Positions 23,667 to 38,096 are shown, numbered from the stretch's first letter. The stretch is DNA of 64,000 nucleotides from Fusibacter sp. JL216-2 (GCF_050596425.1 NZ_CP192292.1:1287987-1351986); one strand, 5' to 3'. Program-made: numbers and translations. The notes: generated by a model from the sequence alone, not told the origin.

Positions 23667-24476
23667 ATGTATAATCTAATGGTATACATCTTTATTGGAC
23701 TATTTCTTGTCATGCTGGTGCAAATTATTCTGATCAAGGTGAAGGGGAATTCAATTGACCATATGGAGAATCAAGACCGTATTGATGAACTCATGTCTTA
23801 TATTAAGGCTGGAAAAGGGTCCTATGTGGATGCATCAGGACGAAATGTTCTTATGATAGCCGCGGCAACCAACTATTATGGAAAACGTGGTGAAAAAAAC
23901 TATTTAGATGTTGTAAAGACAGCGGTACAGGCAGGTATAAGGGTAGATACCAAGTCGTTGGTGGAAGAAAAAACAGCCCTCTTCTATGCCCTTTCCAGTC
24001 CAAGTGGCCGTGAGGTGGCAGAGTATTTACTGGCCTGTGGTGCAAACTCTATGGCGACTGATAAGAAAGGTCGCATTCCATTGTTTGAGAGTATAAAGAG
24101 AAATGGGTCTGGTGCCTACGACCTGATGGTGGAAAAAACATCTGATATAAACCATCAGAGCCAAGAAGGGGTCACGGCCCTTATGGTGGCTGCTAGATAT
24201 ATGAATATACCTGCCATACACGATTTGTTGGATCGCGGCGCCAATGTCAAACTCGTGCAAAAAGATGGGCTCAACGCCTATGATATTGGTGAAAAACATA
24301 AAAAAGAGTTTTATCAACGTAGCGGGGACAGTGCCTCATCGAATAATGATGACAAGCATAATCATACAATTGATGAAGTTGTACGCAAGCTCTACTGCGC
24401 TGTACATGACAAACCTTACAAAGCAAGAAAGTTTGTTCCTAGACAAACAGAGAACATGGCGGATGATTTAGACTAG
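23667..24476 (+). CDS. membrane-anchored ankyrin-repeat protein
   Basis: N-terminal TM, then at least three ankyrin repeats (e.g. GVTALMVAARYMNIPAIHDLLDRGANV). Confidence 0.65.
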   Translation: MYNLMVYIFIGLFLVMLVQIILIKVKGNSIDHMENQDRIDELMSYIKAGKGSYVDASGRNVLMIAAATNYYGKRGEKNYLDVVKTAVQAGIRVDTKSLVEEKTALFYALSSPSGREVAEYLLACGANSMATDKKGRIPLFESIKRNGSGAYDLMVEKTSDINHQSQEGVTALMVAARYMNIPAIHDLLDRGANVKLVQKDGLNAYDIGEKHKKEFYQRSGDSASSNNDDKHNHTIDEVVRKLYCAVHDKPYKARKFVPRQTENMADDLD

Positions 24477-24527
24477 AAAAATATAGAGGTCAGTATCATA
24501 GCTTAAGGCATGAAAAACTCAAGTAAT

Positions 24528-24567
24528 AAATCCGTAGGAGGGACTGAAGACACCTCTTACGGATTTT
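24528..24567. terminator. terminator between ankyrin gene (+) and GGDEF sensor (-)
   Basis: AAATCCGTAGGAGGGACTGAAGACACCTCTTACGGATTTT. Confidence 0.7.
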
Positions 24568-24583
24568 AATTATGTCTTATAAC

Positions 24584-26575
24584 CTATTCATTTTGCATAT
24601 CACGATAGCCGACGACTTGATTTCGACCATGAGCCTTTCCAAAGTAGAGGGCGTCATCAGCGTGCTTTATAATTTCTTTTAAGGCCAGAGGCTCATCATA
24701 AACGGCAACTCCAATGGTCAGGGTGATATGGTCAAAATCTGATATGTCCATGCATGGCATTTTCATATCTTTGATTTGACTGCAAATTCGCTCTGCCAGT
24801 TGCATGGCATCATCGTAAGCCGTTTCAGGTAGAACGATTATAAACTCCTCACCGCCCCATCGCCCGACATCGTCGTAATTTCTGACCTGGTCTTTTAGAC
24901 TCTGACTAAGTCTTTTGAGAACCTCATCACCAACATTGTGGCCATAGGTGTCGTTGACATTTTTGAAGTAATCCACATCAAGAAGTAGGACAGAGAAACA
25001 AGTTCCCTTTCTTTCAAACTTGGAAATTTCCTTTTCCATACTTTCAATAATGGCTCGCCTGTTACCTAGGTTTGTAAGCGGATCACTTTTAAGAAGACGA
25101 TTCATGGAATCGTTGAGCTTGACCCGATCTGTAATATTTTTTCCATTGGCTACAAGATATTCAATTTGATTGTTCTGGTTATAAATTGGACTCATGGAAA
25201 ATTCAATGTGCTGTACATCACCATTGAGATCATAGTGAATCACATCTCGTTTGGGATGGCCTCCCAGTCGTGTCTCTTCAATGGAAAATTTAATAAAGGA
25301 TATGAGTTCCTGAGACCAGTTCCACCATGGTGTATCGTAGAAAAATTCACCAACGAGCTGGTCTGAAGCCACATCGATCATAGAAACAGCGGTCTGGTTG
25401 ACGAAGAGTATTCGTCCTTCAAGATCAAGCACAGCCATAAGCTGAACAGCTTGGTTAACGACCTGTTCAAACTTCAATTGGTTGTTATAGGCTTCAAGGT
25501 TGGCGTGAACTTTCTTACTATACTGGAATATTATTGTGATAAGAAGGAATATGACCACCCCAATCAATAGTTGGTCGCCAAGGGCGTTGAAATAAAGTTT
25601 GGACAAATCATTTATAACGATTAACTGCCAGTCGAATAGCTGAATGTTCATTTTTTTGACAAGATAGTCATTGAACTGGTGGTAGATATTGTCTTCAAGA
25701 CTGAAAAACTCTGATTCATCAATACCAAGTGTGTCTAGATAGAACGCAATAGGGACGACACCGTCTTTCGCATCGGTTTTGTTTGTTGCAATAATTTCCC
25801 CGTATTGGTTGATGAGAAAATATTCACTATCTGTACTGGTGCCCAGTTGAACAATCTCTTCTAATTCATCAAGGGTAATATCTATGGCTAGGGCACCACG
25901 GAAGGTATTATGGTGGTAAATAGGCTTTGAAAGTGTGACCATCATGCCTGCTCCAGCTTCGTCTTCATAAATCTTTGTAGCAACAATACTTCTTTCAGGA
26001 TTGCTTGTGGGGGTTATTTCAGTGAAAAAATCATGGGTAACTGTGTTGGGTGTAAACATGTATTCTGAAGGGGCAACTCTAGGATGAATATTGATGAAGT
26101 TGTTTTGAGACACATAGTAAATCCACTGGATACTTTGAAGATTTTCTTTTGCTGTTTCAAAGAAAGGTGTTAGGAAGGCTGCGCCATACACTTCGTCTAG
26201 TATGGCTTCATCCAGTGTGTCAAAGTTTCCAGTACCACTTAAGCTAGACCCCTTTTCTCCAAGTGTCACATCAGCATAGAATTGATTGCTATCACTGAAG
26301 TAGACTATGTTTTCAAGTTCCCTGTGGTCGGTGGCATCATAGTCGTGGTGGCTTTCTAGAACATTGCTGATCAGTTTGAGGTGAATCTCACTATTGTTGA
26401 GTGTGGTTCTTATATCACTTGACGTCTCTTTGAGGTCATGGGTGATGCCTTGTAAAATATGGTCATATTTTTCATTCACATCTCGAAAGCTAATATAGAT
26501 AAGAAGAACGACAAGGAGACTGATGAAGAAAATTAGAGCGTTCTTTATATATTTATGTGTTAACATTTCCTTCAC
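24584..26575 (-). CDS. sensor diguanylate cyclase (TM - Cache-like - TM - PAS - GGDEF)
   Basis: GRWGGEEFIIVLP catalytic motif. Periplasmic region lies between two TM helices. Confidence 0.8.
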   Translation of the reverse strand: MKEMLTHKYIKNALIFFISLLVVLLIYISFRDVNEKYDHILQGITHDLKETSSDIRTTLNNSEIHLKLISNVLESHHDYDATDHRELENIVYFSDSNQFYADVTLGEKGSSLSGTGNFDTLDEAILDEVYGAAFLTPFFETAKENLQSIQWIYYVSQNNFINIHPRVAPSEYMFTPNTVTHDFFTEITPTSNPERSIVATKIYEDEAGAGMMVTLSKPIYHHNTFRGALAIDITLDELEEIVQLGTSTDSEYFLINQYGEIIATNKTDAKDGVVPIAFYLDTLGIDESEFFSLEDNIYHQFNDYLVKKMNIQLFDWQLIVINDLSKLYFNALGDQLLIGVVIFLLITIIFQYSKKVHANLEAYNNQLKFEQVVNQAVQLMAVLDLEGRILFVNQTAVSMIDVASDQLVGEFFYDTPWWNWSQELISFIKFSIEETRLGGHPKRDVIHYDLNGDVQHIEFSMSPIYNQNNQIEYLVANGKNITDRVKLNDSMNRLLKSDPLTNLGNRRAIIESMEKEISKFERKGTCFSVLLLDVDYFKNVNDTYGHNVGDEVLKRLSQSLKDQVRNYDDVGRWGGEEFIIVLPETAYDDAMQLAERICSQIKDMKMPCMDISDFDHITLTIGVAVYDEPLALKEIIKHADDALYFGKAHGRNQVVGYRDMQNE

Positions 26576-26885: not shown

Positions 26886-28049
26886 ATGATTGATATAACC
26901 GCTTTACTAAGTCAATCTGGGGTTGGTCAGGACTCAATTCGCTATGCGTCTGGCTGTAAAAAGGCCAAACATGGTGTGACCTCAACCAGGGGACCTGTGG
27001 TCGCGTGGAATATAACAAAGCGATGCAACTTTACTTGCAAGCACTGCTATTCAAGTGCCGATTTGAACCCAGGACAAGAAGAACTAGGGCTTGATGAAAT
27101 AAAATCCGCTATAGATCAAATGAAAGCTCTCAAGGTTCCTGTGATCCTTCTTTCTGGAGGGGAACCCATGATGCATGAGCATATTTTTGAAATCATTGAG
27201 TATATCAAAGCCTCTGGCATCCGGGTGAGTCTATCAACAAATGGGAGCCTGATAACGAGAGACACAGCTTTAAGACTGAAATCCTTGGGGGTATCCTACG
27301 TGGGAATCAGTCTAGATGGTATAGGAGAAATCAACGATAGATTTAGAGGGGTCAAGGGCGCCTTTGAAAAAGCAGTGCAAGGCATAAGAAATTGTAATGA
27401 AGCTGGCCAAAAAGTTGGCCTGCGCATGACTGTTCACAAGCATAATGTGTACCACGTGCCGAGCATTTTAAGCTTTATGGAAGAAGAGTCTGTCAAGCGT
27501 ATTTGCTTTTACCACTTGGTGCCGTCTGGAAGAGGGGTTGATATTCAAGATCAAATGATGTCCCCTGAAGAAGCCAGAAAATTTTTAGAGTCACTTATTG
27601 ACTATACGAATCAACAGGACATGGTGAATGATCCGAAAGAGATTTTAACGGTAACCAACCATGTGGATGGCCCTTATACTTACATACTTACAAAAGATAA
27701 AGATCCGGGCTTGGCTCAAAACGTGCTGGAAAAACTTAAAAACAACAAGGGGAATCGTTCGGGGGTTGCCATTATGAATATGGACTGGAGTGGCAATGTG
27801 TATCCGGATCAGTTTTCGAAGTTTATGCCCCTCGGCAGTGTTCGAGAAAAGTCCTTAGAGGAGATTTGGGTAAAAGGCACAGAGGCCTTGAATCAGCTCA
27901 GAAATAAAAATGATCACTTAAACGATCGGTGCAGAAACTGCAAATGGCTGGATATTTGCGGTGGAAACCTAAGGGCGCGTGCCTATATGACAACCGGTGA
28001 TTTATGGGGACATGACCCTGGATGCTACTTAAAGGATGATGAAATATGA
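26886..28049 (+). CDS. radical SAM/SPASM enzyme of alternative heme biosynthesis (AhbC/AhbD = NirJ1/NirJ2 type)
   Basis: CNFTCKHC radical-SAM cluster, C-terminal Cys-rich SPASM region (CRNCKWLDICGGNLRARA), adjacent to AhbA/B-like genes. Confidence 0.75.
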   Translation: MIDITALLSQSGVGQDSIRYASGCKKAKHGVTSTRGPVVAWNITKRCNFTCKHCYSSADLNPGQEELGLDEIKSAIDQMKALKVPVILLSGGEPMMHEHIFEIIEYIKASGIRVSLSTNGSLITRDTALRLKSLGVSYVGISLDGIGEINDRFRGVKGAFEKAVQGIRNCNEAGQKVGLRMTVHKHNVYHVPSILSFMEEESVKRICFYHLVPSGRGVDIQDQMMSPEEARKFLESLIDYTNQQDMVNDPKEILTVTNHVDGPYTYILTKDKDPGLAQNVLEKLKNNKGNRSGVAIMNMDWSGNVYPDQFSKFMPLGSVREKSLEEIWVKGTEALNQLRNKNDHLNDRCRNCKWLDICGGNLRARAYMTTGDLWGHDPGCYLKDDEI

Positions 28050-29059
28050 TACTTTCATGGAATACGACAAAAAGATGTAATCTGTACTGCAAACATTGTT
28101 ATAGGGAGTCAGATGAAAATCCAGCCCTTAATGAATTAACCACGGAGGAAGGCTACAAGCTCATTGATGAGATTGCCAGGACAAAGGCCTTTAAAATACT
28201 AATTCTTAGTGGGGGAGAACCTCTAATTCGTCCTGATATTGAAGACCTTGCCCGTCACGCTAGGACAAGGGGTCTTATACCCGTACTGGGTACAAACGGG
28301 ACATTGATTACAAAAGAAAGGGCCAAAACCTTAAAAGAAGCAGGGGTTGCTGCAGTGGGTATTAGCCTTGACTCTGTATGTCCTGAAAAGCACAATGATT
28401 TTCGTCAAACCCCGGAAGCCTTTGAAAAAGCGCTTGCTGGTATAAAAAATGCCCATGACGAAGGCATTCGTATACAGATCAACCCCACTATCACAAAGGA
28501 CAATGTGGATGAGATTGACAGCCTAATAGAAATGGCAGAAAAACTAAAGGCTGGGGCTCTCCATCCATTTTTCCTGGTTGAGGCGGGACGGGGCAAGTGC
28601 ATGACGGAAAATGCACTCTCTGATGAAGAATATTTTGAAGCCTTAAAGAAAATTATGACCCTGCAGGGGACCAGTCAAGTGGAACTCAAGCCCACATGCG
28701 CCCCACAGTTTATGAGTCTTGCAAAATCCATGGGGGTCAAAACAAGGTTTACCAGAGGTTGCTTGGCAGGGACGAGCTACTGCTGTATTTTGCCAAGTGG
28801 TCAAGTTCATGTTTGTCCATATCTTCCCATAGAAGCAGGCCATGTCCGCGACAAGGCTTTTGATGAAATTTGGTCTGAAAGTGAAGTCTTTATTAAATTA
28901 CGGGGGCAAGTGAATTATGAGGGCCTATGCGGAACATGTGAGGACCATAACATTTGTGGCGGCTGTAGGGCACGAGCCTACTACAAAACAGGTGACTTTA
29001 TGACAGCAGACCCTATGTCTGCCCACTGCTATAAAAGACAGGAGGGACTTGATGAATAA
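28046..29059 (+). CDS. radical SAM/SPASM enzyme of alternative heme biosynthesis (AhbD/AhbC = NirJ2/NirJ1 type)
   Basis: CNLYCKHC plus SPASM (CGTCEDHNICGGCRARA). Paralog of the upstream gene. Confidence 0.75.
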   Translation: MILSWNTTKRCNLYCKHCYRESDENPALNELTTEEGYKLIDEIARTKAFKILILSGGEPLIRPDIEDLARHARTRGLIPVLGTNGTLITKERAKTLKEAGVAAVGISLDSVCPEKHNDFRQTPEAFEKALAGIKNAHDEGIRIQINPTITKDNVDEIDSLIEMAEKLKAGALHPFFLVEAGRGKCMTENALSDEEYFEALKKIMTLQGTSQVELKPTCAPQFMSLAKSMGVKTRFTRGCLAGTSYCCILPSGQVHVCPYLPIEAGHVRDKAFDEIWSESEVFIKLRGQVNYEGLCGTCEDHNICGGCRARAYYKTGDFMTADPMSAHCYKRQEGLDE

Positions 29060-29498
29060 TAAGGAACGTGCTGTACTCAATGTTATTCAGGAGGGGATGC
29101 CCATTAGCAAAAGACCCTTTCAGGATATTGGAAGACAGATTGATATGTCTGAAAGCCAAGTGATTGAAGTCATTGAGTCTTTAAATGAAAAGGGATTGAT
29201 TCGGCGATTTGGTGGTATTGTTAACATTGCTGAGCTCGGTGTTGTCAGCACACTTGTCGGCCTTCGAGTCCAACCAGAAGACGTTGAAAAGGTTGCACTA
29301 GAAATAAACACCTTAACGGGTGTCACACATAATTATGAAAGAGATGATGCCTTTAATTTATGGTTCACCCTTATGGAGTCCAGTGATGAAAAACTACATG
29401 AGAGACTGGAGGCTGTTGAGGCAATGGAGGCTGTAGAGTGCCTCATTGACCTGAAGGCAAAGCAAAAATTTAAAACAAAAGTGGTCTTAGACTTGTAA
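29052..29498 (+). CDS. siroheme decarboxylase subunit, AhbA/AhbB (NirD/NirL/NirG/NirH, Lrp/AsnC-like) family
   Basis: HTH-like N-terminus (RAVLNVIQEGMPISKRPF) and heme-d1/Ahb family sequence. ATG behind GGAGGGA. Confidence 0.75.
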   Translation: MNNKERAVLNVIQEGMPISKRPFQDIGRQIDMSESQVIEVIESLNEKGLIRRFGGIVNIAELGVVSTLVGLRVQPEDVEKVALEINTLTGVTHNYERDDAFNLWFTLMESSDEKLHERLEAVEAMEAVECLIDLKAKQKFKTKVVLDL

Positions 29499-29503
29499 AG
29501 GCG

Positions 29504-29998
29504 GTGAAGCGTTTGGATAGCAAGGACTTAAAAATATTAAAGGCCCTTTCTGGAAATATTCCTATATCAGAACAGCCATTTTTAGAATTGGCTCGTGGGC
29601 TTGGTATGAGTGAGGATGAAGTGATACAGCGTATCAGGGTCCTTCAAGAAAGTGGCGCTTTAAAGCGGATTGCCCCCATTCTCTACCACCACAAAACCAG
29701 GTACAAGTTCAACGCCCTCACAATCTGGTCAGTTGACCCATCTAGGGTAGAGATTTTAGCAGACTGCCTAATGTCTTTTAAGCACGTGAGCCACGTGTAT
29801 GAAAGAACCACTTGCGAGGCTTGGCCTTATAACCTGTATGGAATGGCCCATGGGACAAGTGAAAAAGATATTGAAGATATTGTTGAGGACGTTATACATA
29901 GAGTAGGAGATATGCCCCACAAAGTCGTATACACCGTCAAGGAGTGGAAAAAGACAAGCCCTGATTTGAAGTATTTGCTTGCACAAAGACCAGTGTAG
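29504..29998 (+). CDS. siroheme decarboxylase subunit, AhbA/AhbB family (second paralog)
   Basis: Paralog of the previous gene (LKILKALSGNIPISEQPF). GTG start. Confidence 0.7.
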   Translation: MKRLDSKDLKILKALSGNIPISEQPFLELARGLGMSEDEVIQRIRVLQESGALKRIAPILYHHKTRYKFNALTIWSVDPSRVEILADCLMSFKHVSHVYERTTCEAWPYNLYGMAHGTSEKDIEDIVEDVIHRVGDMPHKVVYTVKEWKKTSPDLKYLLAQRPV

Positions 29999-30065: not shown

Positions 30066-30106
30066 AAAGACCCAGTGACCGAAGTGAAGGGCTGGGTCTT
30101 TTTTTG
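30066..30106 (+). terminator. intrinsic terminator after the ahb cluster
   Basis: AGACCCAG...CTGGGTCT followed by TTTTTTT. Confidence 0.8.
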
Positions 30107-30377
30107 TGTCTGCCTTTAAAACGATTAAGATATGTCTGGGACATATTACAAAAATAATACAAAACGAATAATACATGGTTACAATTTTGCTAATATTATA
30201 CATTAGACACATCTAAGTTGCTATAATAGAAAATGTTGGAACTAGAAAATGTTGGTTGTATTAAAACTTATAAGGATTAAGAAGCAGATAATCCTTTATA
30301 AGTGTCTAGAAACCATATTTGCTCACTTATAGAGGGAGGGGAGTGTTACGGAACTCATACGATTTGCGTTTAGCGGT

Positions 30378-30989
30378 GTGAATGTCATACCGACTTTGTT
30401 GCTGCTTCTAATACAGTGCTACTGGATAGTGGTGACCCTGGGCTTTTTTGATTTAGAATTTATGGATATTGATGTTGATTTGGAGAGTGCAGAAGGCATA
30501 GGTTTTTTAAACTCGCTGGCACTATTCGTCAACTATGGGAACGTACCTTTTGGACTTGTTTTAAGCTTAATCATTTTAAACTTTTGGATACTCATGATGC
30601 TGACATATTATTTGCCAATACAAGCGGGAGGCATAATAAGCTTTATTTTGCTCTTTCCAGCATTTTTGGCCAGTCTTTACATCACAAAGTTTGAAGTTCA
30701 GCCCTTAAAGGCTCGTTATTTTGAGCAAAAGGAAAACAACGATATTGAACATAGGGTGCTGAATAAAAGATGCCAGCTTCTATGTTCTTTGGAATATGGG
30801 CGTCTTGGTCAAGCAGAAATTAACCAAGACGGTGTGTCCATTGTAATAAATGTTAAAAGTCATTTTGAGGGCATTTCTTTTGAAAAAGGAGAATATGCAC
30901 TTGTCCTAAAAAAAGATGACAAAGATATTTATTACATTGGAAAGTTATTGTTGGGAAATGATTTCTATAAGGAGATGGAGGAAGTTTAA
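30378..30989 (+). CDS. NfeD/YqiJ-like membrane protein (flotillin-associated)
   Basis: N-terminal TM helices plus a soluble C-terminal domain. Stop overlaps the flotillin start. GTG start. Confidence 0.5.
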   Translation: MNVIPTLLLLLIQCYWIVVTLGFFDLEFMDIDVDLESAEGIGFLNSLALFVNYGNVPFGLVLSLIILNFWILMMLTYYLPIQAGGIISFILLFPAFLASLYITKFEVQPLKARYFEQKENNDIEHRVLNKRCQLLCSLEYGRLGQAEINQDGVSIVINVKSHFEGISFEKGEYALVLKKDDKDIYYIGKLLLGNDFYKEMEEV

Positions 30990-33013
30990 TGGGTTTTTTA
31001 ACACAAGTCGGATTTGTATCAGTAGGCACAGGCATACTGGTCATCCTAGGACTGCTATTCTTATTTTCAAGATTCTACAAGAAGGTGGAGCAGTCCAAGG
31101 TTATTATTAGAAATGGTGTAGGCGGTCAAAATGTATGTTTTGGTGGTATATTTGTCGTTCCGATCATTCACCACTATGAAATTATGGACATAGCTGTTAA
31201 GCGTGTAGAAATTGCCAGGGAAGGTAAAGAAGGTCTAATTTGTAAAGACAACCTACGTGCCGATATTCGAGTGGCGTTCTTTGTGCGTGTTAACCAAACG
31301 AAGGAAGATGTCCTTAAAGTGGCACAATCATTAGGCTGTAGACAAGGTTCAGATCCAGATACCCTAACGGCATTTTTTGATGCGAAATTCTCTGAAGCCC
31401 TTAAAACAGTTGGTAAGAAATTCGACTTTGTAGAACTATACACAAACAGAGAAAAATTCAAAGATGAAATATTACAAATCATTGGCACAGACCTAAATGG
31501 TTATGTGCTTGATGACGCTGCAATAGATTTTCTGGAGCAAACGGATATTAAACTTCTAAATGCAGATAATATTCTTGATTCAGAAGGTATTAAAAAGATC
31601 ACAGAACTGACTGCCAAACAAAGAATTCTGTCAAATGAAATTGAAAGAGAAAGAGAAAAGACAATCAAACAGCAAGATGTTGCGGCTCAAGAGGCTATTT
31701 TCGAGCTTGACAAACAACGTGCTGAGGCAGAAGCCAAGCAAAAAAGAGAAATATCCATTATCAAGTCAAGGGAAGAAGCAGAAGCAGAAAAAGTTGCACA
31801 GGAAGAACGCTTCAAGTCAGAACTTGCTCGTGTTAAAACGGAAGAGGAAATTGGTGTTGCTGAAGAAAACAAGCTAAGACAGATTATTATTGCGGCAAAA
31901 TCAAAAGAAAGCACAGAAGTTGTTGAAACAGAACGTGTTGATAGAAAAAGGCTGCTTGAATTGACGGAAAAAGAAAAGCTTGTTGAACTTGCGACAATTG
32001 AGAAAGAAAAGCAAGTTGAAGTGGAAAGAAAGAACGTTCAGACTGTTATTCGCGAAAGAGTGGCTGTGGAAAAAGACACAGTTGTGGAAGAAGAAAAAAT
32101 CAAAGACACTCGTGTCCTTGCTGAGGCTGATCGTGTTAAAAATGTTGCTCTTAAAAAAGCAGAAGAAGATGCAGAAACACAACAAATCAGAGAAGTTAAA
32201 GCTGCTGAAGCGGCTAAGATGGCAGCAGAAAAACAAGCTGAAAAAGCTATTATTGATGCAGATGCCAAGCTGAAATCGTCACAAAAAGAAGCGGAGGCCA
32301 TTAAGGTCATTGCAGATGCAAAAGTTCTGGATAACTCAGTGGACGGTGTTGCTGAATCTAAGGTTATCGAAGCTAAAGCTATGGCAGAAGCCAAAGGCGA
32401 AGCGGCTAAGGTTGAGGTTAAAGAAAAAGAAGGTATTGTTATCGCTGAAAACCTTAAGAGAAAGTACCTTTCTGAAGCAGAAGGCATCAAGGAAAAAGCG
32501 TCCAGCATGAAACTTCTTGATGAAGTTGGCCGTGAGCACGAAGAGTTCAAACTTGAACTTGATAAAGAAAAAGAAGTTCAACTTGCAAGAATCAATATTC
32601 AAAAAGACATTGCAGACGCTCAAGCCGCAGTTATTCAAGAAGCGCTTAAGTCAGCGAAAATTGACATTGTTGGCGGTGAAACAATGTTCTTTGATAAGAT
32701 CATTGGCTCTATTTCACAAGGTAAGTCTATCGACCGTCTAGTGGACAATAGCGATGTTCTATCGGATATTAAAGAAACACTTGTGACTGGTGATCCTGAG
32801 TACTTCCAAAAGCAACTCAAGAGCACGATGGGACGTTTTAACCTATCCTCTCAAGACCTGATGAACTTAACGATTTCAGGGGCCATCGGCAAAATGATGA
32901 AATCAGCCAATACAGCAGACAAGACAATGCTTGGAAAACTGCTCGATACAGTTCAAAAAGCAGGTGTGGCTGAACTTCCGGCAAATATCGTGAACACGAC
33001 TCTTGGAGAGTAA
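30989..33013 (+). CDS. flotillin (SPFH/band-7 family, FloT/YqiK-like) with extended E/A/K-rich coiled coil
   Basis: N-terminal TM, SPFH domain (KVIIRNGVGGQNVCFGGIFVVPIIHHYEIMD), long EA-repeat coiled coil. Confidence 0.85.
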   Translation: MGFLTQVGFVSVGTGILVILGLLFLFSRFYKKVEQSKVIIRNGVGGQNVCFGGIFVVPIIHHYEIMDIAVKRVEIAREGKEGLICKDNLRADIRVAFFVRVNQTKEDVLKVAQSLGCRQGSDPDTLTAFFDAKFSEALKTVGKKFDFVELYTNREKFKDEILQIIGTDLNGYVLDDAAIDFLEQTDIKLLNADNILDSEGIKKITELTAKQRILSNEIEREREKTIKQQDVAAQEAIFELDKQRAEAEAKQKREISIIKSREEAEAEKVAQEERFKSELARVKTEEEIGVAEENKLRQIIIAAKSKESTEVVETERVDRKRLLELTEKEKLVELATIEKEKQVEVERKNVQTVIRERVAVEKDTVVEEEKIKDTRVLAEADRVKNVALKKAEEDAETQQIREVKAAEAAKMAAEKQAEKAIIDADAKLKSSQKEAEAIKVIADAKVLDNSVDGVAESKVIEAKAMAEAKGEAAKVEVKEKEGIVIAENLKRKYLSEAEGIKEKASSMKLLDEVGREHEEFKLELDKEKEVQLARINIQKDIADAQAAVIQEALKSAKIDIVGGETMFFDKIIGSISQGKSIDRLVDNSDVLSDIKETLVTGDPEYFQKQLKSTMGRFNLSSQDLMNLTISGAIGKMMKSANTADKTMLGKLLDTVQKAGVAELPANIVNTTLGE

Positions 33014-34427
33014 TATGGATAACGGTACTTATGAAGTTATAAAAAGCCGTCTGACCAAGCAAGGGGACGACTTATTAGGGAAAGCAGAAAAATTAAATGC
33101 TGTTAGAAAGGATGTCTTTGGTTCTATTGAATCAAAGCTCCTTTCCAGCGAGAGAATTTTAACAGACAACAACTGTATTCCAAGGGATATGGCGCCTGTG
33201 GATGACTGTTTTCTCTTTGGATACAATGTTCATATTGGTCTGAAGCAAAAGGTAGAACTGGCAGATGTGTTTTCCATTTATAGATATGATCAAGAGGGAT
33301 TCACAGCGCAGTCGCTTGAAATGATCAATGACGACCAGTTCAAAAAGGATTTCGATGATCTTTACAAGTACTACAAGAACACATCTTTTGCAAAGTTCAC
33401 CATTATGCAGCCGTATTTTTATATGGTTTTTCAGGTGGGAACCAGCGCAACAGATATAAAAGCCTTCAAATGGCAGGTTGATGGCAAAAAAATGACCTAT
33501 GTGGATTCCAGAAGTGAGCATGAGGTCAAGTTTCATCTTGGAAACGAACTCAATTTCATTAAGGCAAGCAGGGAACACCAAAGAAATGGTATGCACCCCC
33601 ATGTGTCTATTCTTGACAAAGTCTTTGTGGAGACCATTGGCGGAGACTTGACCATAAAGGTTGAAGACAATACCGATGTGGGCAAGGGCATATACTCTGA
33701 GGATGTTGAGGATAAAGACCAAACCCTTGATGATGCGGAAATATATTATGCAGACCTTGACCAGCTCATTATCCTTAAAATTTTGCCTTATCAGGAAAAG
33801 GACTACAGGTATTTTGTTTTTAACAACAAGCTAAAAAGCGTTCAACGCATTGACTCCATAGAGCACACATGCAAGCTTCTTCCAGGAGGGCATGGTCTTA
33901 TATTCCCACAAGGCTACTATTTGCAAAATGGAGAGTTTAAACTGTTCGATGTGCCTGTCGAAAACCCTGTATTCGATGAACTGATCACATCTCCAAATGG
34001 AGAAGATTTTCAGTACATTTTCTACAATATGGACAGTGGCACATATCTCATTTACAACTACAATATTATTGAGCAGACCATAGATACGCCCATTGTATGC
34101 AGTGGTTACTCTCATTTCTGTAATGGGGAAATGCTGGTGTTCAGACATGAAAAGGATCCGAGAAAAAATCATGCTGTCCAGATATGGCAGACCCCTTATG
34201 TGGGCAAGGACTTTGAACTGGCTGGCAACCATGACTCCGAGCTCTATAAAATAGGCAATAAAGATGTTGTAAATTGTATAGCAGCTTGTCGGGGCATTGG
34301 AAAACTCATCAAAAAGGCGAGAGCTACCAAAGTGTCTACCTTGATATTGTTAAAGAAGCTCAGACGACTCTGGACCTTTATTTTTGGCTTGACAAGGAAG
34401 ATGCCTTTCATCTGGCTGATGACCTGA
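33003..34427 (+). CDS. N-terminal segment (to about nt 34316) of a roughly 1670-aa AAA+ protein; the tail of this ORF beyond 34316 is out-of-frame read-through
   Basis: Protein-like sequence up to ...NCIAACRGIGKLIKK; after that the frame reads nonsense, while the -1 frame continues as real protein. Confidence 0.55.
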   Translation: MESNMDNGTYEVIKSRLTKQGDDLLGKAEKLNAVRKDVFGSIESKLLSSERILTDNNCIPRDMAPVDDCFLFGYNVHIGLKQKVELADVFSIYRYDQEGFTAQSLEMINDDQFKKDFDDLYKYYKNTSFAKFTIMQPYFYMVFQVGTSATDIKAFKWQVDGKKMTYVDSRSEHEVKFHLGNELNFIKASREHQRNGMHPHVSILDKVFVETIGGDLTIKVEDNTDVGKGIYSEDVEDKDQTLDDAEIYYADLDQLIILKILPYQEKDYRYFVFNNKLKSVQRIDSIEHTCKLLPGGHGLIFPQGYYLQNGEFKLFDVPVENPVFDELITSPNGEDFQYIFYNMDSGTYLIYNYNIIEQTIDTPIVCSGYSHFCNGEMLVFRHEKDPRKNHAVQIWQTPYVGKDFELAGNHDSELYKIGNKDVVNCIAACRGIGKLIKKARATKVSTLILLKKLRRLWTFIFGLTRKMPFIWLMT

Positions 34428-37400
34428 AGAAGATAAAAGAGACAGCCACCTTTGCCATAGGCGAGTTTGAAAAAGTCATTCGAATGAAAAAATCCACTGA
34501 AAAACAAGTGGATCAAGTGACTGAGCAAACAGAAGAACTCTTGAAGAATCTTGAGTACGGCACCTTTGAAAGTGTTGACGAGTACGTCAATGTTTTGGGC
34601 CAAATACGAAATCTACGAGGGAAGATTGTCTCCCTTCGTGATTTAATGTATACGGACCTTGAGCATGTGGATAAACTCGATAAAAGCGTCAAAGAAAAAA
34701 ACGATGCATTTTCTGAGCAGTGTGTACACTTCCTGATTAGTCCAGATGGTCTACTGCCTTATGAAAGTGCCATTGAAGACTTGAAAAACGGCATTGAAGA
34801 GGTGACAAAGTCTCAAGAAGGACAAGAGCTTGCTGAAAAAATGGACAAGACATCAGAAGACTTGGAGCTTCTCATGGATATTGTCAGCAATTTTAAGATC
34901 GAGGATCCAACGGTTTCCACAGAGATCATTGAGAAAATTTCATCCCTCTTTTCTAAAATAAACAACGCCAAAGCCCAACTAAAAACAAAAATTGACGCTT
35001 TTTCAAAGAGTGAAATGACCATTCAGTTCAACGCTCAGATGAAATTATTGGGCCAGGCTGTGGCCAATTATTTGGAAGTGTCAGATACAGAAGAAAAGTG
35101 TGACAATGCTCTCAATAAGGTCATGGTTCAGCTTCAAGAACTTGAAGGAAAGTTTGCAGAGTTCGATGAGTACGTCATAAAACTTGATGAAAAGCGTGAA
35201 GAAATTTACAGTGCATTTGAGTCAAAAAAACAGGCCATTTTAGACAAACTCAACAAAAGACTTGTTGCCCTATCGGACTCTTCCGAAAGAATTATCAATG
35301 GCATTGAAAACAGAATAAAAGCTTTGGAGTCTGTGGAAAAAATCAATGGTTACCTGGCCACAGATATAATGGCTGAAAAAGTTCGGGATATTATCTCAGA
35401 GCTCCGAGAACTCGGAGACAGCGTTCGAGCAGATGAAATCAGTTCCAAGCTCAAGTCCCTTAAAGAGAACACCATCAGACAGCTCAAAGACAGGCAGGAT
35501 TTATATCTAAATGGAGAAGATGTCATAAAGCTTGGAGAGCATCACTTCTCGGTCAACCGTAAAAACATTGATCTGTCTATAGTTCAAAAAGATGGTCGTC
35601 TCTTCTACCACATCACAGGGACAGACTACTGGGATGAAGTCACCCATGAAGAGGTTTACAAGTACAAACATGTCTTTGAACAGAGTATGATCTCTGAGAA
35701 CATTGATGTCTATAGAGGGGAATATCTGGCATACATAATGTTTAGAAATGCCAGTGACCAGACCTATAAAAGTTTGGATGAACTTTATAACATGTCTTTA
35801 CCCCAGCTGACAGAAGCGGTAAGGACCTTCATGGAGAAAAGATACCAGGAAGGCTATACCAAGGGCGTTCACGATGAAGATGGTGCTAAAATACTCCACG
35901 GTCTTCTGGAACTCTATCATAATGTAGACCTGCTGATTTACCCTCATGATATTCGGTCGGCGGCTCGTCTGTATTGGAATAGCATGCTTGAGCCTTCAGA
36001 TAAGAAGATTATGAGAGAGCGACTTGGTCATCTTTCAAAAATAGCATCGTTCTTTGATTCAGAACCTAAACCGGATGACTATCTGCCTTTTGTCATTGAT
36101 AGACTTAAATCAGCCCAGTCTAATTTTTCTTTATTTAAGTCGACAGATGTTCATGAAATGGCCAGCTATCTATGTAAGGAACTTCTCAGTGGGTCTAACT
36201 TTGTTATTAGTCAAGATGCCAAACGTGTTTATGATGGCTTCGTATCATATCTAAGAGACAAAAAAGCCCTAGACACATTCACTCAGTCTCTTCAAAATTG
36301 TTCTGAAGACTTAGAAGGCCAATACTACTTGACCAAAGAATGGGTCAGTGCCTACTGGAAAGAACAAGAACAGGCTTCTGAAAAACATATAGAAGTTGAT
36401 CCAGAAGACTTAAGCGGTGTCCTTGGGGAAACTGTGGTTCTGCTCCTTGAAGATGAAGTCAATATGGATAGTGTTGTTCAGTCCTCTACAAAAGCGACCA
36501 TCGAGGGGCTGGTTGGAACCCACAATATACTAGAGAATGGGGGCTATAGCCTCCACTATACGGACTTCATGGACAAAATGAAGGACTTCAGTGAAAGGGT
36601 TGTTGTGGACTATATAAGGTATCAGGATATTAAAAAGACCTTGATTAAAACCTTTAAGGCTCAGCTTCGTCTGGATGACTTTAAGCCAAATGTTCTTACG
36701 TCTTTCGTGCGCAATAAGCTCATAGACGATGTTTATCTACCTCTTATAGGGGATAACCTCGCCAAACAAATTGGTGTTGTGGGTGACAATAAGCGAACAG
36801 ACTTAATGGGTCTTCTGCTCCTTGTATCTCCACCGGGCTATGGTAAAACAACCCTCATGGAGTACATTGCCAATCGACTCGGCCTTATTATGGTTAAGGT
36901 CAATGGACCTTCCCTGGGCAATGAAGTGACCTCGCTTGATCCTTCAAAAGCAAGTCATTCCAGCGCTAAGGAAGAACTAAGAAAACTTAATCTTGCCCTG
37001 AAAATGGGCAACAATATCATGCTCTATGTGGATGACATCCAGCACTGTAACCCAGAGTTCTTGCAAAAGTTCATCTCTTTATGTGATGGACAGCGTAAGA
37101 TTGAAGGGGTCCACAATGGTGTTGGTCAAACCTTTGACCTGCGTGGCAAGAAAATTGCAGTGGTTATGGCAGGCAATCCATATACAGAAAGTGGAGAGAA
37201 ATTTAAAATACCAGACATGTTGGCCAATCGTGCCGATGTTTATAACCTAGGGGACATGCTTCGTGAAAATGAAGAGGCCTTTAAACTCAGCTATATAGAA
37301 AACAGCCTGACATCCAACCCTGTCTTGTCCAAACTGACCAATAGAAATCAATCTGACTTATATGGTCTTATTGAGATGGCGGGTGGGGCAGATCGAGAAA

Positions 37401-38011
37401 GTGTGACCCTAGAAGGCAACTACACAGCTGATGAACTAAGTGAGTATGTGCAGGTGCTGGAAAAGCTAAATGTGGTTCGTGATATCGTTCTAAAGGTGAA
37501 TATGGAGTATATTTATTCTGCGGCCCAGGCTGACGAATACCGAAATGAACCAGCCTTTAAACTGCAAGGGTCCTACCGTAATATGAACAAGATTGCTGAG
37601 CGCGTGGTCTCTGTAATGAATGACGATGAGCTTTTTGCACAGATTGTTGGTAGTTATGAGAACGATTGTCAGACCCTGACGTCCGGTGCGGAGTCAAACA
37701 TGCTTAAATGGAAGGAAATCAATAATTGTCTCACTGATGAAGAAGGTATGCGATATGATCAAATCAAGCAGGTCTTCAATAAGAACAAACTTGTCAAAGG
37801 TGATGACAAAATGGGACAAGCCGTGGTTGTACTCAGCGACCTGACAGATGAAATCGCCTCCATAAAAGAAATGTTTAAAAACAAGCCAGCATCAGATGGA
37901 CAGCCATCAGGTGAGTACGTTAATGTTCTGAAAGATTTGACAGAGAACATACGGAGAATTAAAGAGGTTTATGAAAGGCTAGACCAAGACAAGGTCAAAG
38001 ATAAAAAATAG
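34274..38011 (+). CDS. C-terminal 1230-aa segment of the same giant protein: long coiled-coil region plus AAA+ (AAA_5/MoxR-like) ATPase module
   Basis: Walker A LLVSPPGYGKTT, Walker B IMLYVDDIQ, sensor-1 VVMAGNP, MoxR-like NPYTESGEKFKIPDMLANRADVY. Confidence 0.7.
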   Translation: MYSSLSGHWKTHQKGESYQSVYLDIVKEAQTTLDLYFWLDKEDAFHLADDLKKIKETATFAIGEFEKVIRMKKSTEKQVDQVTEQTEELLKNLEYGTFESVDEYVNVLGQIRNLRGKIVSLRDLMYTDLEHVDKLDKSVKEKNDAFSEQCVHFLISPDGLLPYESAIEDLKNGIEEVTKSQEGQELAEKMDKTSEDLELLMDIVSNFKIEDPTVSTEIIEKISSLFSKINNAKAQLKTKIDAFSKSEMTIQFNAQMKLLGQAVANYLEVSDTEEKCDNALNKVMVQLQELEGKFAEFDEYVIKLDEKREEIYSAFESKKQAILDKLNKRLVALSDSSERIINGIENRIKALESVEKINGYLATDIMAEKVRDIISELRELGDSVRADEISSKLKSLKENTIRQLKDRQDLYLNGEDVIKLGEHHFSVNRKNIDLSIVQKDGRLFYHITGTDYWDEVTHEEVYKYKHVFEQSMISENIDVYRGEYLAYIMFRNASDQTYKSLDELYNMSLPQLTEAVRTFMEKRYQEGYTKGVHDEDGAKILHGLLELYHNVDLLIYPHDIRSAARLYWNSMLEPSDKKIMRERLGHLSKIASFFDSEPKPDDYLPFVIDRLKSAQSNFSLFKSTDVHEMASYLCKELLSGSNFVISQDAKRVYDGFVSYLRDKKALDTFTQSLQNCSEDLEGQYYLTKEWVSAYWKEQEQASEKHIEVDPEDLSGVLGETVVLLLEDEVNMDSVVQSSTKATIEGLVGTHNILENGGYSLHYTDFMDKMKDFSERVVVDYIRYQDIKKTLIKTFKAQLRLDDFKPNVLTSFVRNKLIDDVYLPLIGDNLAKQIGVVGDNKRTDLMGLLLLVSPPGYGKTTLMEYIANRLGLIMVKVNGPSLGNEVTSLDPSKASHSSAKEELRKLNLALKMGNNIMLYVDDIQHCNPEFLQKFISLCDGQRKIEGVHNGVGQTFDLRGKKIAVVMAGNPYTESGEKFKIPDMLANRADVYNLGDMLRENEEAFKLSYIENSLTSNPVLSKLTNRNQSDLYGLIEMAGGADRESVTLEGNYTADELSEYVQVLEKLNVVRDIVLKVNMEYIYSAAQADEYRNEPAFKLQGSYRNMNKIAERVVSVMNDDELFAQIVGSYENDCQTLTSGAESNMLKWKEINNCLTDEEGMRYDQIKQVFNKNKLVKGDDKMGQAVVVLSDLTDEIASIKEMFKNKPASDGQPSGEYVNVLKDLTENIRRIKEVYERLDQDKVKDKK
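34310..34316 (+). other. C-AAA-AAG heptamer at the exact point where the giant ORF shifts to the -1 frame (candidate programmed -1 frameshift site or homopolymer indel)
   Basis: Upstream frame reads atc-aaa-aag (I-K-K); the -1 frame continues aaa-ggc-gag (K-G-E...) with protein-like sequence. Confidence 0.5.
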
Positions 38012-38052: not shown

Positions 38053-38096
38053 AAAGTCTGCTTACCCTTAGCATGGGCAAGCAGACTTTTATTTTT
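38053..38096. terminator. bidirectional terminator after the giant AAA+ gene (+) and the AraC gene (-)
   Basis: AGTCTGCTTACCC...GGGCAAGCAGACT followed by TTTATTTTTT. Confidence 0.8.

Follow-up and report, generated by a model that had tools for sequence, protein, structure and literature searches.

A conserved YqiJ-flotillin-giant AAA+ ATPase gene module in Fusibacter sp. JL216-2, with a frameshift in its ATPase gene

In a stretch of 64,000 nucleotides (nt) from Fusibacter sp. JL216-2, a member of the Clostridia (GCF_050596425.1, NZ_CP192292.1:1287987-1351986; the window, numbered from its first nucleotide), we analyzed a tightly packed set of co-directional genes that encode a YqiJ/YuaF-type NfeD-like protein, a YqiK-family flotillin and a giant AAA+ protein (33015-38011). 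We read this region, with a probability of about 0.55, as one copy of a conserved three-gene membrane module in which the giant, tethered to flotillin, would act as an ATP-driven remodeller for membrane maintenance of the PspA type. The three-gene unit is conserved across at least eight phyla, the giant has a defined domain make-up, and the unit is linked to PspA in some lineages; the gene order suggests a flotillin-scaffolded machine. A first-pass annotation had placed the three co-directional genes correctly, and its flotillin linkage and MoxR-like AAA+ assignment held, but it had taken the giant for an intact protein, reading across a frameshift that went unnoticed, and had judged it unplaceable in any family.

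Four open reading frames (ORFs) rather than three lie on the + strand, at 30378-30989 (203 amino acids), 30989-33013 (674 amino acids), 33003-34427 (474 amino acids) and 34274-38011 (1,245 amino acids). The features of the module are as follows.

30378..30989, + strand: YqiJ/YuaF-type (NfeD2-like) membrane protein, 203 amino acids as annotated, with three hydrophobic segments and a C-terminal soluble domain
30989..33013, + strand: YqiK-family (SPFH2) flotillin, 674 amino acids, with a hydrophobic N-terminal anchor, SPFH domain, long Glu/Ala/Lys-rich coiled-coil and conserved C-terminal tail
33015..34313, + strand: 5′ part of the giant gene, frame 0; N-terminal helix (residues 3-35), then the DUF3686 beta-rich propeller-like domain
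34311..34315, + strand: A5 homopolymer, the one-base frameshift site that splits the giant gene; A6 in sister strain L001
34316..38011, + strand: 3′ part of the giant gene, -1 frame; helical bundles with DUF7902, small beta unit, helical domain, AAA+ module and C-terminal helices
34748-34993, + strand: DUF7902 (PF25472), 87.1 bits (cut-off, 26)
36827..36853, + strand: Walker A/P-loop SPPGYGKTT; S-P-P-G-Y-G-K-T invariant in 28 diverse homologues
37022..37045, + strand: Walker B LYVDDIQH, with an invariant Asp replacing the usual catalytic Glu; D1340, D1341, Q1343 and H1344 invariant
37160..37237, + strand: sensor-1 strand VVMAGNPYTE (37160-37189) and PDMLANRAD (37211-37237), with candidate arginine finger R1406

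A three-gene unit conserved across phyla

A scan of one genome per species confirmed the giant gene at least 595 times. We kept 80 of these loci as a neighborhood set, identified neighbors by profile searches of all ORFs and by all-against-all clustering, and counted adjacency on the 66 loci whose upstream DNA extended for at least 3 kb. A flotillin gene lay immediately 5′ of the giant gene, on the same strand, at 63 of the 66 loci, and a YqiJ-like gene came immediately before the flotillin at 55 of those 63; at a few Verrucomicrobiota/Lentisphaeria loci the flotillin was longer and the YqiJ-like gene was not detected. The 80 loci span Bacillota, Bacteroidota, Planctomycetota, Verrucomicrobiota, Desulfobacterota, Kiritimatiellota, Lentisphaerota, Omnitrophota and a Chitinispirillaceae bacterium, to which a plasmid search added Pseudomonadota, Actinomycetota and Deinococcota. 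The flanks varied while the order was kept, and another Fusibacter retained the module in wholly different flanks, the flotillin stop and the giant start again being separated by one base. The adjacency that the first-pass annotation had set as its own test is therefore conserved.

Conserved neighbor clusters were limited to flotillin, YqiJ-like, PspA, CesT-like and helix-turn-helix (HTH) genes, and no conserved gene emerged downstream in the all-against-all clustering of the loci. At 17 to 19 Bacteroidota loci the module was preceded by genes matching CesT_Tir_1 (E = 5.3e-56) and PspA_IM30 (E = 8.7e-41), with a divergent HTH gene beside them. On the plasmid pQBR103, one strand reads, in order, YjfI, PspA, a rhomboid protease, DUF2491, DUF350, DUF1190, a glutathionylspermidine-synthase-like protein, a hypothetical protein of 217 amino acids, an SPFH protein and a "DNA repair ATPase" of 1,748 amino acids.

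This locus of an environmental Pseudomonas megaplasmid (L083, NC_009444.1, 986-14190) is the longest version of the cluster and adjoins an MvaT/MvaU-type silencer gene; in it, a yjfI-yjfJ(pspA)-like polyamine/PspA operon is run together with the flotillin and giant genes. At another locus (L085, Vibrio campbellii NZ_CP050465.1, 13834-15609), two co-directional ORFs of 234 and 352 amino acids lie 3′ of the giant gene, and the N terminus of the longer one looks, by eye, like that of a TelA-type (toxic-anion-resistance) protein.

An operon of the same architecture was described computationally, in prose, by Ravi et al. (mSystems 2024, PMC11237479), who also noted widely distributed "abbreviated operons" without PspA. 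The domain architectures of the three proteins and their single-operon arrangement agree with the window, which corresponds to the PspA-less abbreviated form, while the fuller CesT-PspA-YqiJ-flotillin-giant form is the one recovered here in Bacteroidota and, at greater length, on pQBR103. The window copy differs in having no PspA or CesT gene nearby and a frameshifted ATPase gene, and the published account is a single computational paragraph. By architecture and neighborhood, rather than by sequence, we infer that the ATPase of Ravi et al. belongs to the DUF3686 family. Literature searches returned no paper mentioning DUF3686, PF12458, DUF7902 or IPR020958, and none on a "DNA repair ATPase" together with flotillin.

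In many Bacteroidota/Verrucomicrobiota loci a gap of 0.5 to 2.4 kb separates flotillin and giant. Long spacers occurred at the following loci.

L009, L014, L020, L026, L030, L033, L039, L041, L054, L060, L065, L069, L076

These spacers hold small ORFs that are mostly unrelated between loci, some of them lipoprotein-, transposase- or toxin-antitoxin-like by eye. A conserved fourth gene between flotillin and giant was considered and rejected, since the inserts bear no relation to each other. Insertions appear to be tolerated at this position.

Such small mobile or toxin-antitoxin-like inserts, which gather in the spacer at some loci, are among the observations that would suit an anti-phage or abortive-infection system, in which a large ATPase sensor would be paired with a membrane effector. 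Large P-loop/AAA+ proteins with repeat sensors are common in defense systems, and the module moves as a unit between unrelated contexts and is found on large plasmids. However, PADLOC-DB 2.0 gave only insignificant, P-loop-level matches for the giant (IetA, TRIP13 and mad8; E = 0.004 to 0.02), its two partner proteins had no match at all, no homologue was present among 50,697 phage records, and no restriction, nuclease or other defense gene occurred among the conserved neighbors. The very high conservation of the flotillin across phyla is unlike that of fast-evolving defense genes, and the genetic linkage leads to PspA-type envelope-stress genes. These data make a defense role improbable.

The two membrane partners and the giant protein

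Genes 1 and 2 were assigned by sequence to the NfeD2-SPFH2 type (YqiJ/YuaF with YqiK/FloT), since the flotillin matched E. coli YqiK in BLASTP and homologues of the gene 1 product matched YqiJ_N. This operon type was defined by Hinderhofer et al. 2009 (PMC2636767). The partner gene precedes the flotillin gene, with overlapping stop and start, as it does in E. coli yqiJ-yqiK and B. subtilis yuaF-floT; at TAATG (30987-30991) the gene 1 stop and the gene 2 start share one base. The overlap of the "classic nfeD-floT pair" in the first-pass annotation was thus correct, but "classic" is a loose description of two proteins with no direct Pfam, NCBIfam or PDB match.

The gene 1 product is recorded as a hypothetical protein (P0241, 100% identical), and its homologues carry the names DUF1449 or YqiJ N-terminal domain protein. 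Searches of Pfam, NCBIfam and PDB sequences found nothing for it up to E = 10; PF21001 (YqiJ_N) matched 11 of 17 homologues, with a best E value of 6.6e-5. Alignment of the family to E. coli YqiJ with hhalign was weak (probability, 11%; E = 0.0028; over the transmembrane region), and direct BLASTP of the gene 1 product against E. coli YqiJ found no significant similarity. A block reading GRLGQAE..G..VINV...KD..YYI is conserved at the C terminus of the family.

The in-frame segment upstream of the annotated GTG 30378 of gene 1 encodes REGSVTELIRFAFSG, matching conserved N termini of homologues, and the interval from 30330 (TAG) to 30378 is free of in-frame ATG, GTG or TTG. A strong Shine-Dalgarno-like GAGGGAGGGG lies at 30331-30340, and a 12-codon ORF runs out of frame from a GTG at 30343 to the TGA at 30379-30381 and overlaps the annotated start; the sequence of 30330-30381 is the same in the sister strain. 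From these features, the real start of gene 1 may lie upstream of GTG 30378, near 30333, or a non-canonical initiation or coupling mechanism may operate.

The gene 2 product is named "flotillin family protein" by NCBI (P0121, 100% identical), and close homologues are also called "YqiK." BLASTP against E. coli YqiK (b3051) aligned the SPFH domain and coiled-coil region at 30% identity over 438 amino acids (E = 1e-45). The window flotillin is longer (674 versus 553 amino acids) and belongs to a much more conserved subgroup, the giant-linked flotillins of other phyla having a median identity of 52.7% to it, against 30% for E. coli YqiK. Nothing in Pfam, NCBIfam or the PDB sequences matched it at E values up to 10, and a profile of 12 homologues likewise had no match in PDB. 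Precomputed PF01145 (Band_7) matches exist for about half of the homologues 72 to 85% identical to it, and such a match is recorded on homologues 83 to 85% identical. One likely reason for the missing Pfam match is the effect of the HMMER bias/composition filter on the long Glu/Ala/Lys-rich region. This miss is a caution for automated annotation.

For the giant, the sister-strain gene call and another Fusibacter both use ATG 33015, one base past the flotillin stop, and GGAG is present at 33006-33009; the 10-nt overlap with flotillin claimed earlier depends on TTG 33003 instead. The N-terminal 433 residues are Pfam DUF3686 (PF12458; E = 7.5e-170; 565.7 bits; cut-off, 25). Both DUF3686 and DUF7902 score above their gathering thresholds, and with the corrected length of 1,665 residues the protein belongs to the giant ATPase family that carries them. 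The protein thus has a family, contrary to the first-pass annotation, and its operon is the one in the 2024 paper. The DUF3686 domain is present in 660 clusters at 50% identity, the full-length members being mostly 1,600 to 1,930 amino acids long.

The AlphaFold model of the N-terminal part, built on a 41-sequence alignment, had a predicted local distance difference test score (pLDDT) of 91 and a predicted template modelling score of 0.88 and showed one long helix and then an all-beta domain, modelled as an irregular fold that resembles a beta-propeller. The remaining 1,193 residues were modelled with a pLDDT of 84.5. They begin with about 360 residues folded into long helices, after which come a small beta unit, a helical domain, the AAA+ core, the lid and terminal helices. 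These models agree with the earlier description of a beta-rich N-terminal part and a helical middle. A beta-hairpin at model residues 890-903, which precedes the sensor-1 strand, is read as a predicted pre-sensor-1 hairpin. No protease domain and no predicted membrane segment were found in the giant.

The AAA+ assignment rests on Walker A, Walker B, sensor-1, a candidate arginine finger and an alpha-beta-alpha core with a helical lid. The motifs reported by the first-pass annotation (SPPGYGKTT, a Walker B VDD without Glu, VVMAGNP and PDMLANRAD) were all present, and 28 homologues with 28 to 47% identity kept them with little or no change; the strictly invariant positions were SPPGYGKT, D1340-D1341, Q1343-H1344, MAGNPYT, P-DML-NR (R1406) and QGSYR. 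By structure, the nearest folds were CbbQ2, NorQ, midasin and dynein. At the sequence level only the P-loop stretch aligned, best with classical AAA proteins and RuvB, and Pfam AAA (PF00004) scored above AAA_5. The pore-loop-1 position reads GNEVTSLDP, and because it has no aromatic residue, the giant would be more of a MoxR-type remodeller than a threading unfoldase.

Both NCBI ("DNA repair ATPase") and PF12458 ("ATPase involved in DNA repair") name the protein for a role in DNA repair, in which case its adjacency to flotillin would stem from co-regulation or chance. Pfam and NCBIfam scans detected no DNA-binding or DNA-processing domain in the giant, and no repair gene occurred among the conserved neighbors. 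In favor of the name are the weak P-loop matches to RuvB and a Shewanella study in which knock-out of a YqiK-family gene raised spontaneous mutation (PMC1468410), although that paper places no giant ATPase gene beside the flotillin. The name has no support beyond the database label, and we regard a repair function as highly unlikely.

The frameshift and the surroundings of the window copy

The single ORF of 1,670 amino acids described earlier does not exist in the window: 33003-38011 measures 5,009 nt, which is not a multiple of 3, and the last two ORFs (474 and 1,245 amino acids) are in different frames. The break lies at atcAAAAAGgcg, in the A5 run at 34311-34315, beyond which frame 0 ends at TGA 34425-34427. 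Insertion of one A restored a continuous protein of 1,665 amino acids from ATG 33015, differing at 8 positions (99.5% identity) from the sister-strain protein P0001. The source of the latter, contig L001, shares 98.7% identity with the window along 20.5 kb and has A6 and an intact gene for 1,665 amino acids.

The A5/A6 difference was the only coding-region indel in the aligned 20.5 kb and, outside one divergent intergenic stretch, the other indels numbered two, both intergenic; thus, the assembly is not riddled with homopolymer errors. The giant genes of window and sister strain differed by 14 synonymous and 8 non-synonymous changes, which fits purifying selection up to the present. Taken together, the purifying selection and the few indels indicated that the one-base deletion in the A run is either a very recent inactivation or an isolated sequencing or assembly error. 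The giant here is probably a damaged member of its family and adds nothing new to it.

In the same comparison, about 150 nt at 24445-24596 were scrambled relative to L001 and accounted for 29 of the 32 alignment gaps, in flanks about 99% identical.

A split ORF could also arise from a programmed -1 ribosomal frameshift at AAA-AAG, by which a propeller-only product of 474 amino acids and the full-length protein would both be made. AAA-AAG is a known shift-prone motif in bacteria, and if the A-site tRNA-Lys slipped by -1 on A-AAG, the product would read exactly LIKKGES, as in the intact homologue. However, the 98.7%-identical strain has A6 and an uninterrupted ORF, and the homologues were single proteins of 1,571 to 1,691 amino acids in all 120 cases among the matches listed. 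In addition, the heptamer is C-AAA-AAG and not A-AAA-AAG, and no nearby downstream hairpin was found, the closest hairpin-like sites being at least 130 nt off and on the other strand. Programmed frameshifting at this site is therefore hardly credible.

Two hairpins flank the module.

30068..30105, + strand: hairpin and T-run (agacccag...ctgggtct then tttttt), read from sequence
38053..38089, unstranded (placed on the minus strand by the scan): 15-bp hairpin between the giant stop and a convergent AraC-type gene

The first is a likely terminator of the preceding AsnC-like gene and, as such, would mark the 5′ boundary of the module's transcription unit; the terminator scan omitted it because its loop exceeds 8 nt. 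The second is a probable terminator at the 3′ end of the unit. The total count of terminator-like sites in the region was not above chance, the promoter/terminator consensus scan gave no excess over shuffled expectation, and Rfam produced no credible match in the 380-nt spacer upstream of the module, where CrcZ reached 13 bits and the threshold is 95. Directly 5′ of the module, at 26886-29998 (+ strand), lie two radical-SAM/SPASM genes and two NirD/L-like HTH/AsnC_trans_reg2 genes, as called from the Pfam matches on the syntenic contig L001. Together they resemble an alternative heme (Ahb-type) biosynthesis cluster.

Proposed role of the giant protein

In the proposed mechanism, the flotillin and its NfeD partner would form the usual cage-like membrane scaffold, and the giant, which would be cytoplasmic, would oligomerize through its AAA+ module. 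Its propeller and helical arms would dock it on either the flotillin/NfeD scaffold or PspA polymers, and slow or regulated ATP turnover would assemble, remodel or dismantle membrane-bound assemblies in envelope stress. Cooperation between an SPFH-family scaffold and an AAA+ ATPase at the bacterial membrane has a precedent in HflK/HflC-FtsH. This system differs from the module in that its ATPase, FtsH, belongs to the classical AAA clade and is a protease anchored in the membrane, and in that the HflK/C cage is on the periplasmic side, whereas the giant belongs to another AAA+ clade. HflK/HflC-FtsH is also cited in a P. aeruginosa SPFH paper (PMC13086221), which does not mention the giant ATPase. 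In E. coli K-12, unlike in the window, no giant ATPase gene follows yqiK.

Several observations weigh against the proposed role. The ATPase gene may be dead in Fusibacter sp. JL216-2, and with a Walker B that has no catalytic Glu, hydrolysis by the giant is uncertain. Three of the 66 loci (L024, L025 and L064) had no flotillin within the upstream DNA examined, and no PspA was found in the 64-kb window with a hidden Markov model that was built only from Bacteroidota sequences and is limited in reach. The literature yielded no report of interaction, localization, ATPase activity or phenotype for the giant. Finally, the VWA/MIDAS partner that is a hallmark of MoxR systems was not seen in the module, in the Pfam-annotated sister and Fusibacter loci or among conserved neighbors.

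The relation of the giant to MoxR proteins is accordingly partial. Its AAA+ core, of about 250 residues as in MoxR, is structurally closest to MoxR members (CbbQ and NorQ), but that core is embedded in 1,665 residues with a propeller and coiled-coil, while MoxR proteins stand alone at about 300 to 500 residues; compared with MoxR, midasin and dynein, its Walker B has DD in place of DE, and the helix-2 insert hairpin was not seen in the model. Given its length, its large N-terminal domains and the missing VWA gene, we describe the giant as MoxR-like in its AAA+ fold and do not file it as a MoxR family member.

The likeness to MoxR-type maturases also suggests that the giant might act on membrane-protein clients, inserting cofactors or maturing respiratory or transport complexes in the manner of NorQ, CbbQ and RavA; the flotillin cage would then be no more than a work-bench. 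CbbQ2 and NorQ are its closest structural neighbors, its pore loop has no aromatic residue, and flotillin/NfeD complexes are reported to stabilize unfolded proteins (cited in PMC13086221). Since no VWA/MIDAS adaptor or candidate client gene is conserved beside the module, we hold this to be possible but unlikely; by sequence data alone it is inseparable from the remodeller explanation.

A more specific form of the remodeller explanation concerns PspA. A 2025 review (PMC7619361) states that a Vps4-like ATPase for PspA/ESCRT-III dynamics appears absent in bacteria. Tentatively, and with odds well below even, the giant may be this missing ATP-driven remodeller of flotillin cages and/or PspA polymers, a functional counterpart of Vps4 on a MoxR/dynein-type motor, whose arms and propeller would grip the scaffold and whose DD would make it a slow, regulated switch. 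The likeness to Vps4/ESCRT-III is functional only and consists in the genetic linkage of an AAA+ ATPase to a membrane polymer of the ESCRT-III superfamily (PspA).

The analysis replaces the name "DNA repair ATPase," quantifies the linkage to flotillin and defines the domains and catalytic residues of the family. The function of bacterial flotillins is still debated, and the giant is a testable candidate for an energy-consuming partner of flotillin scaffolds.

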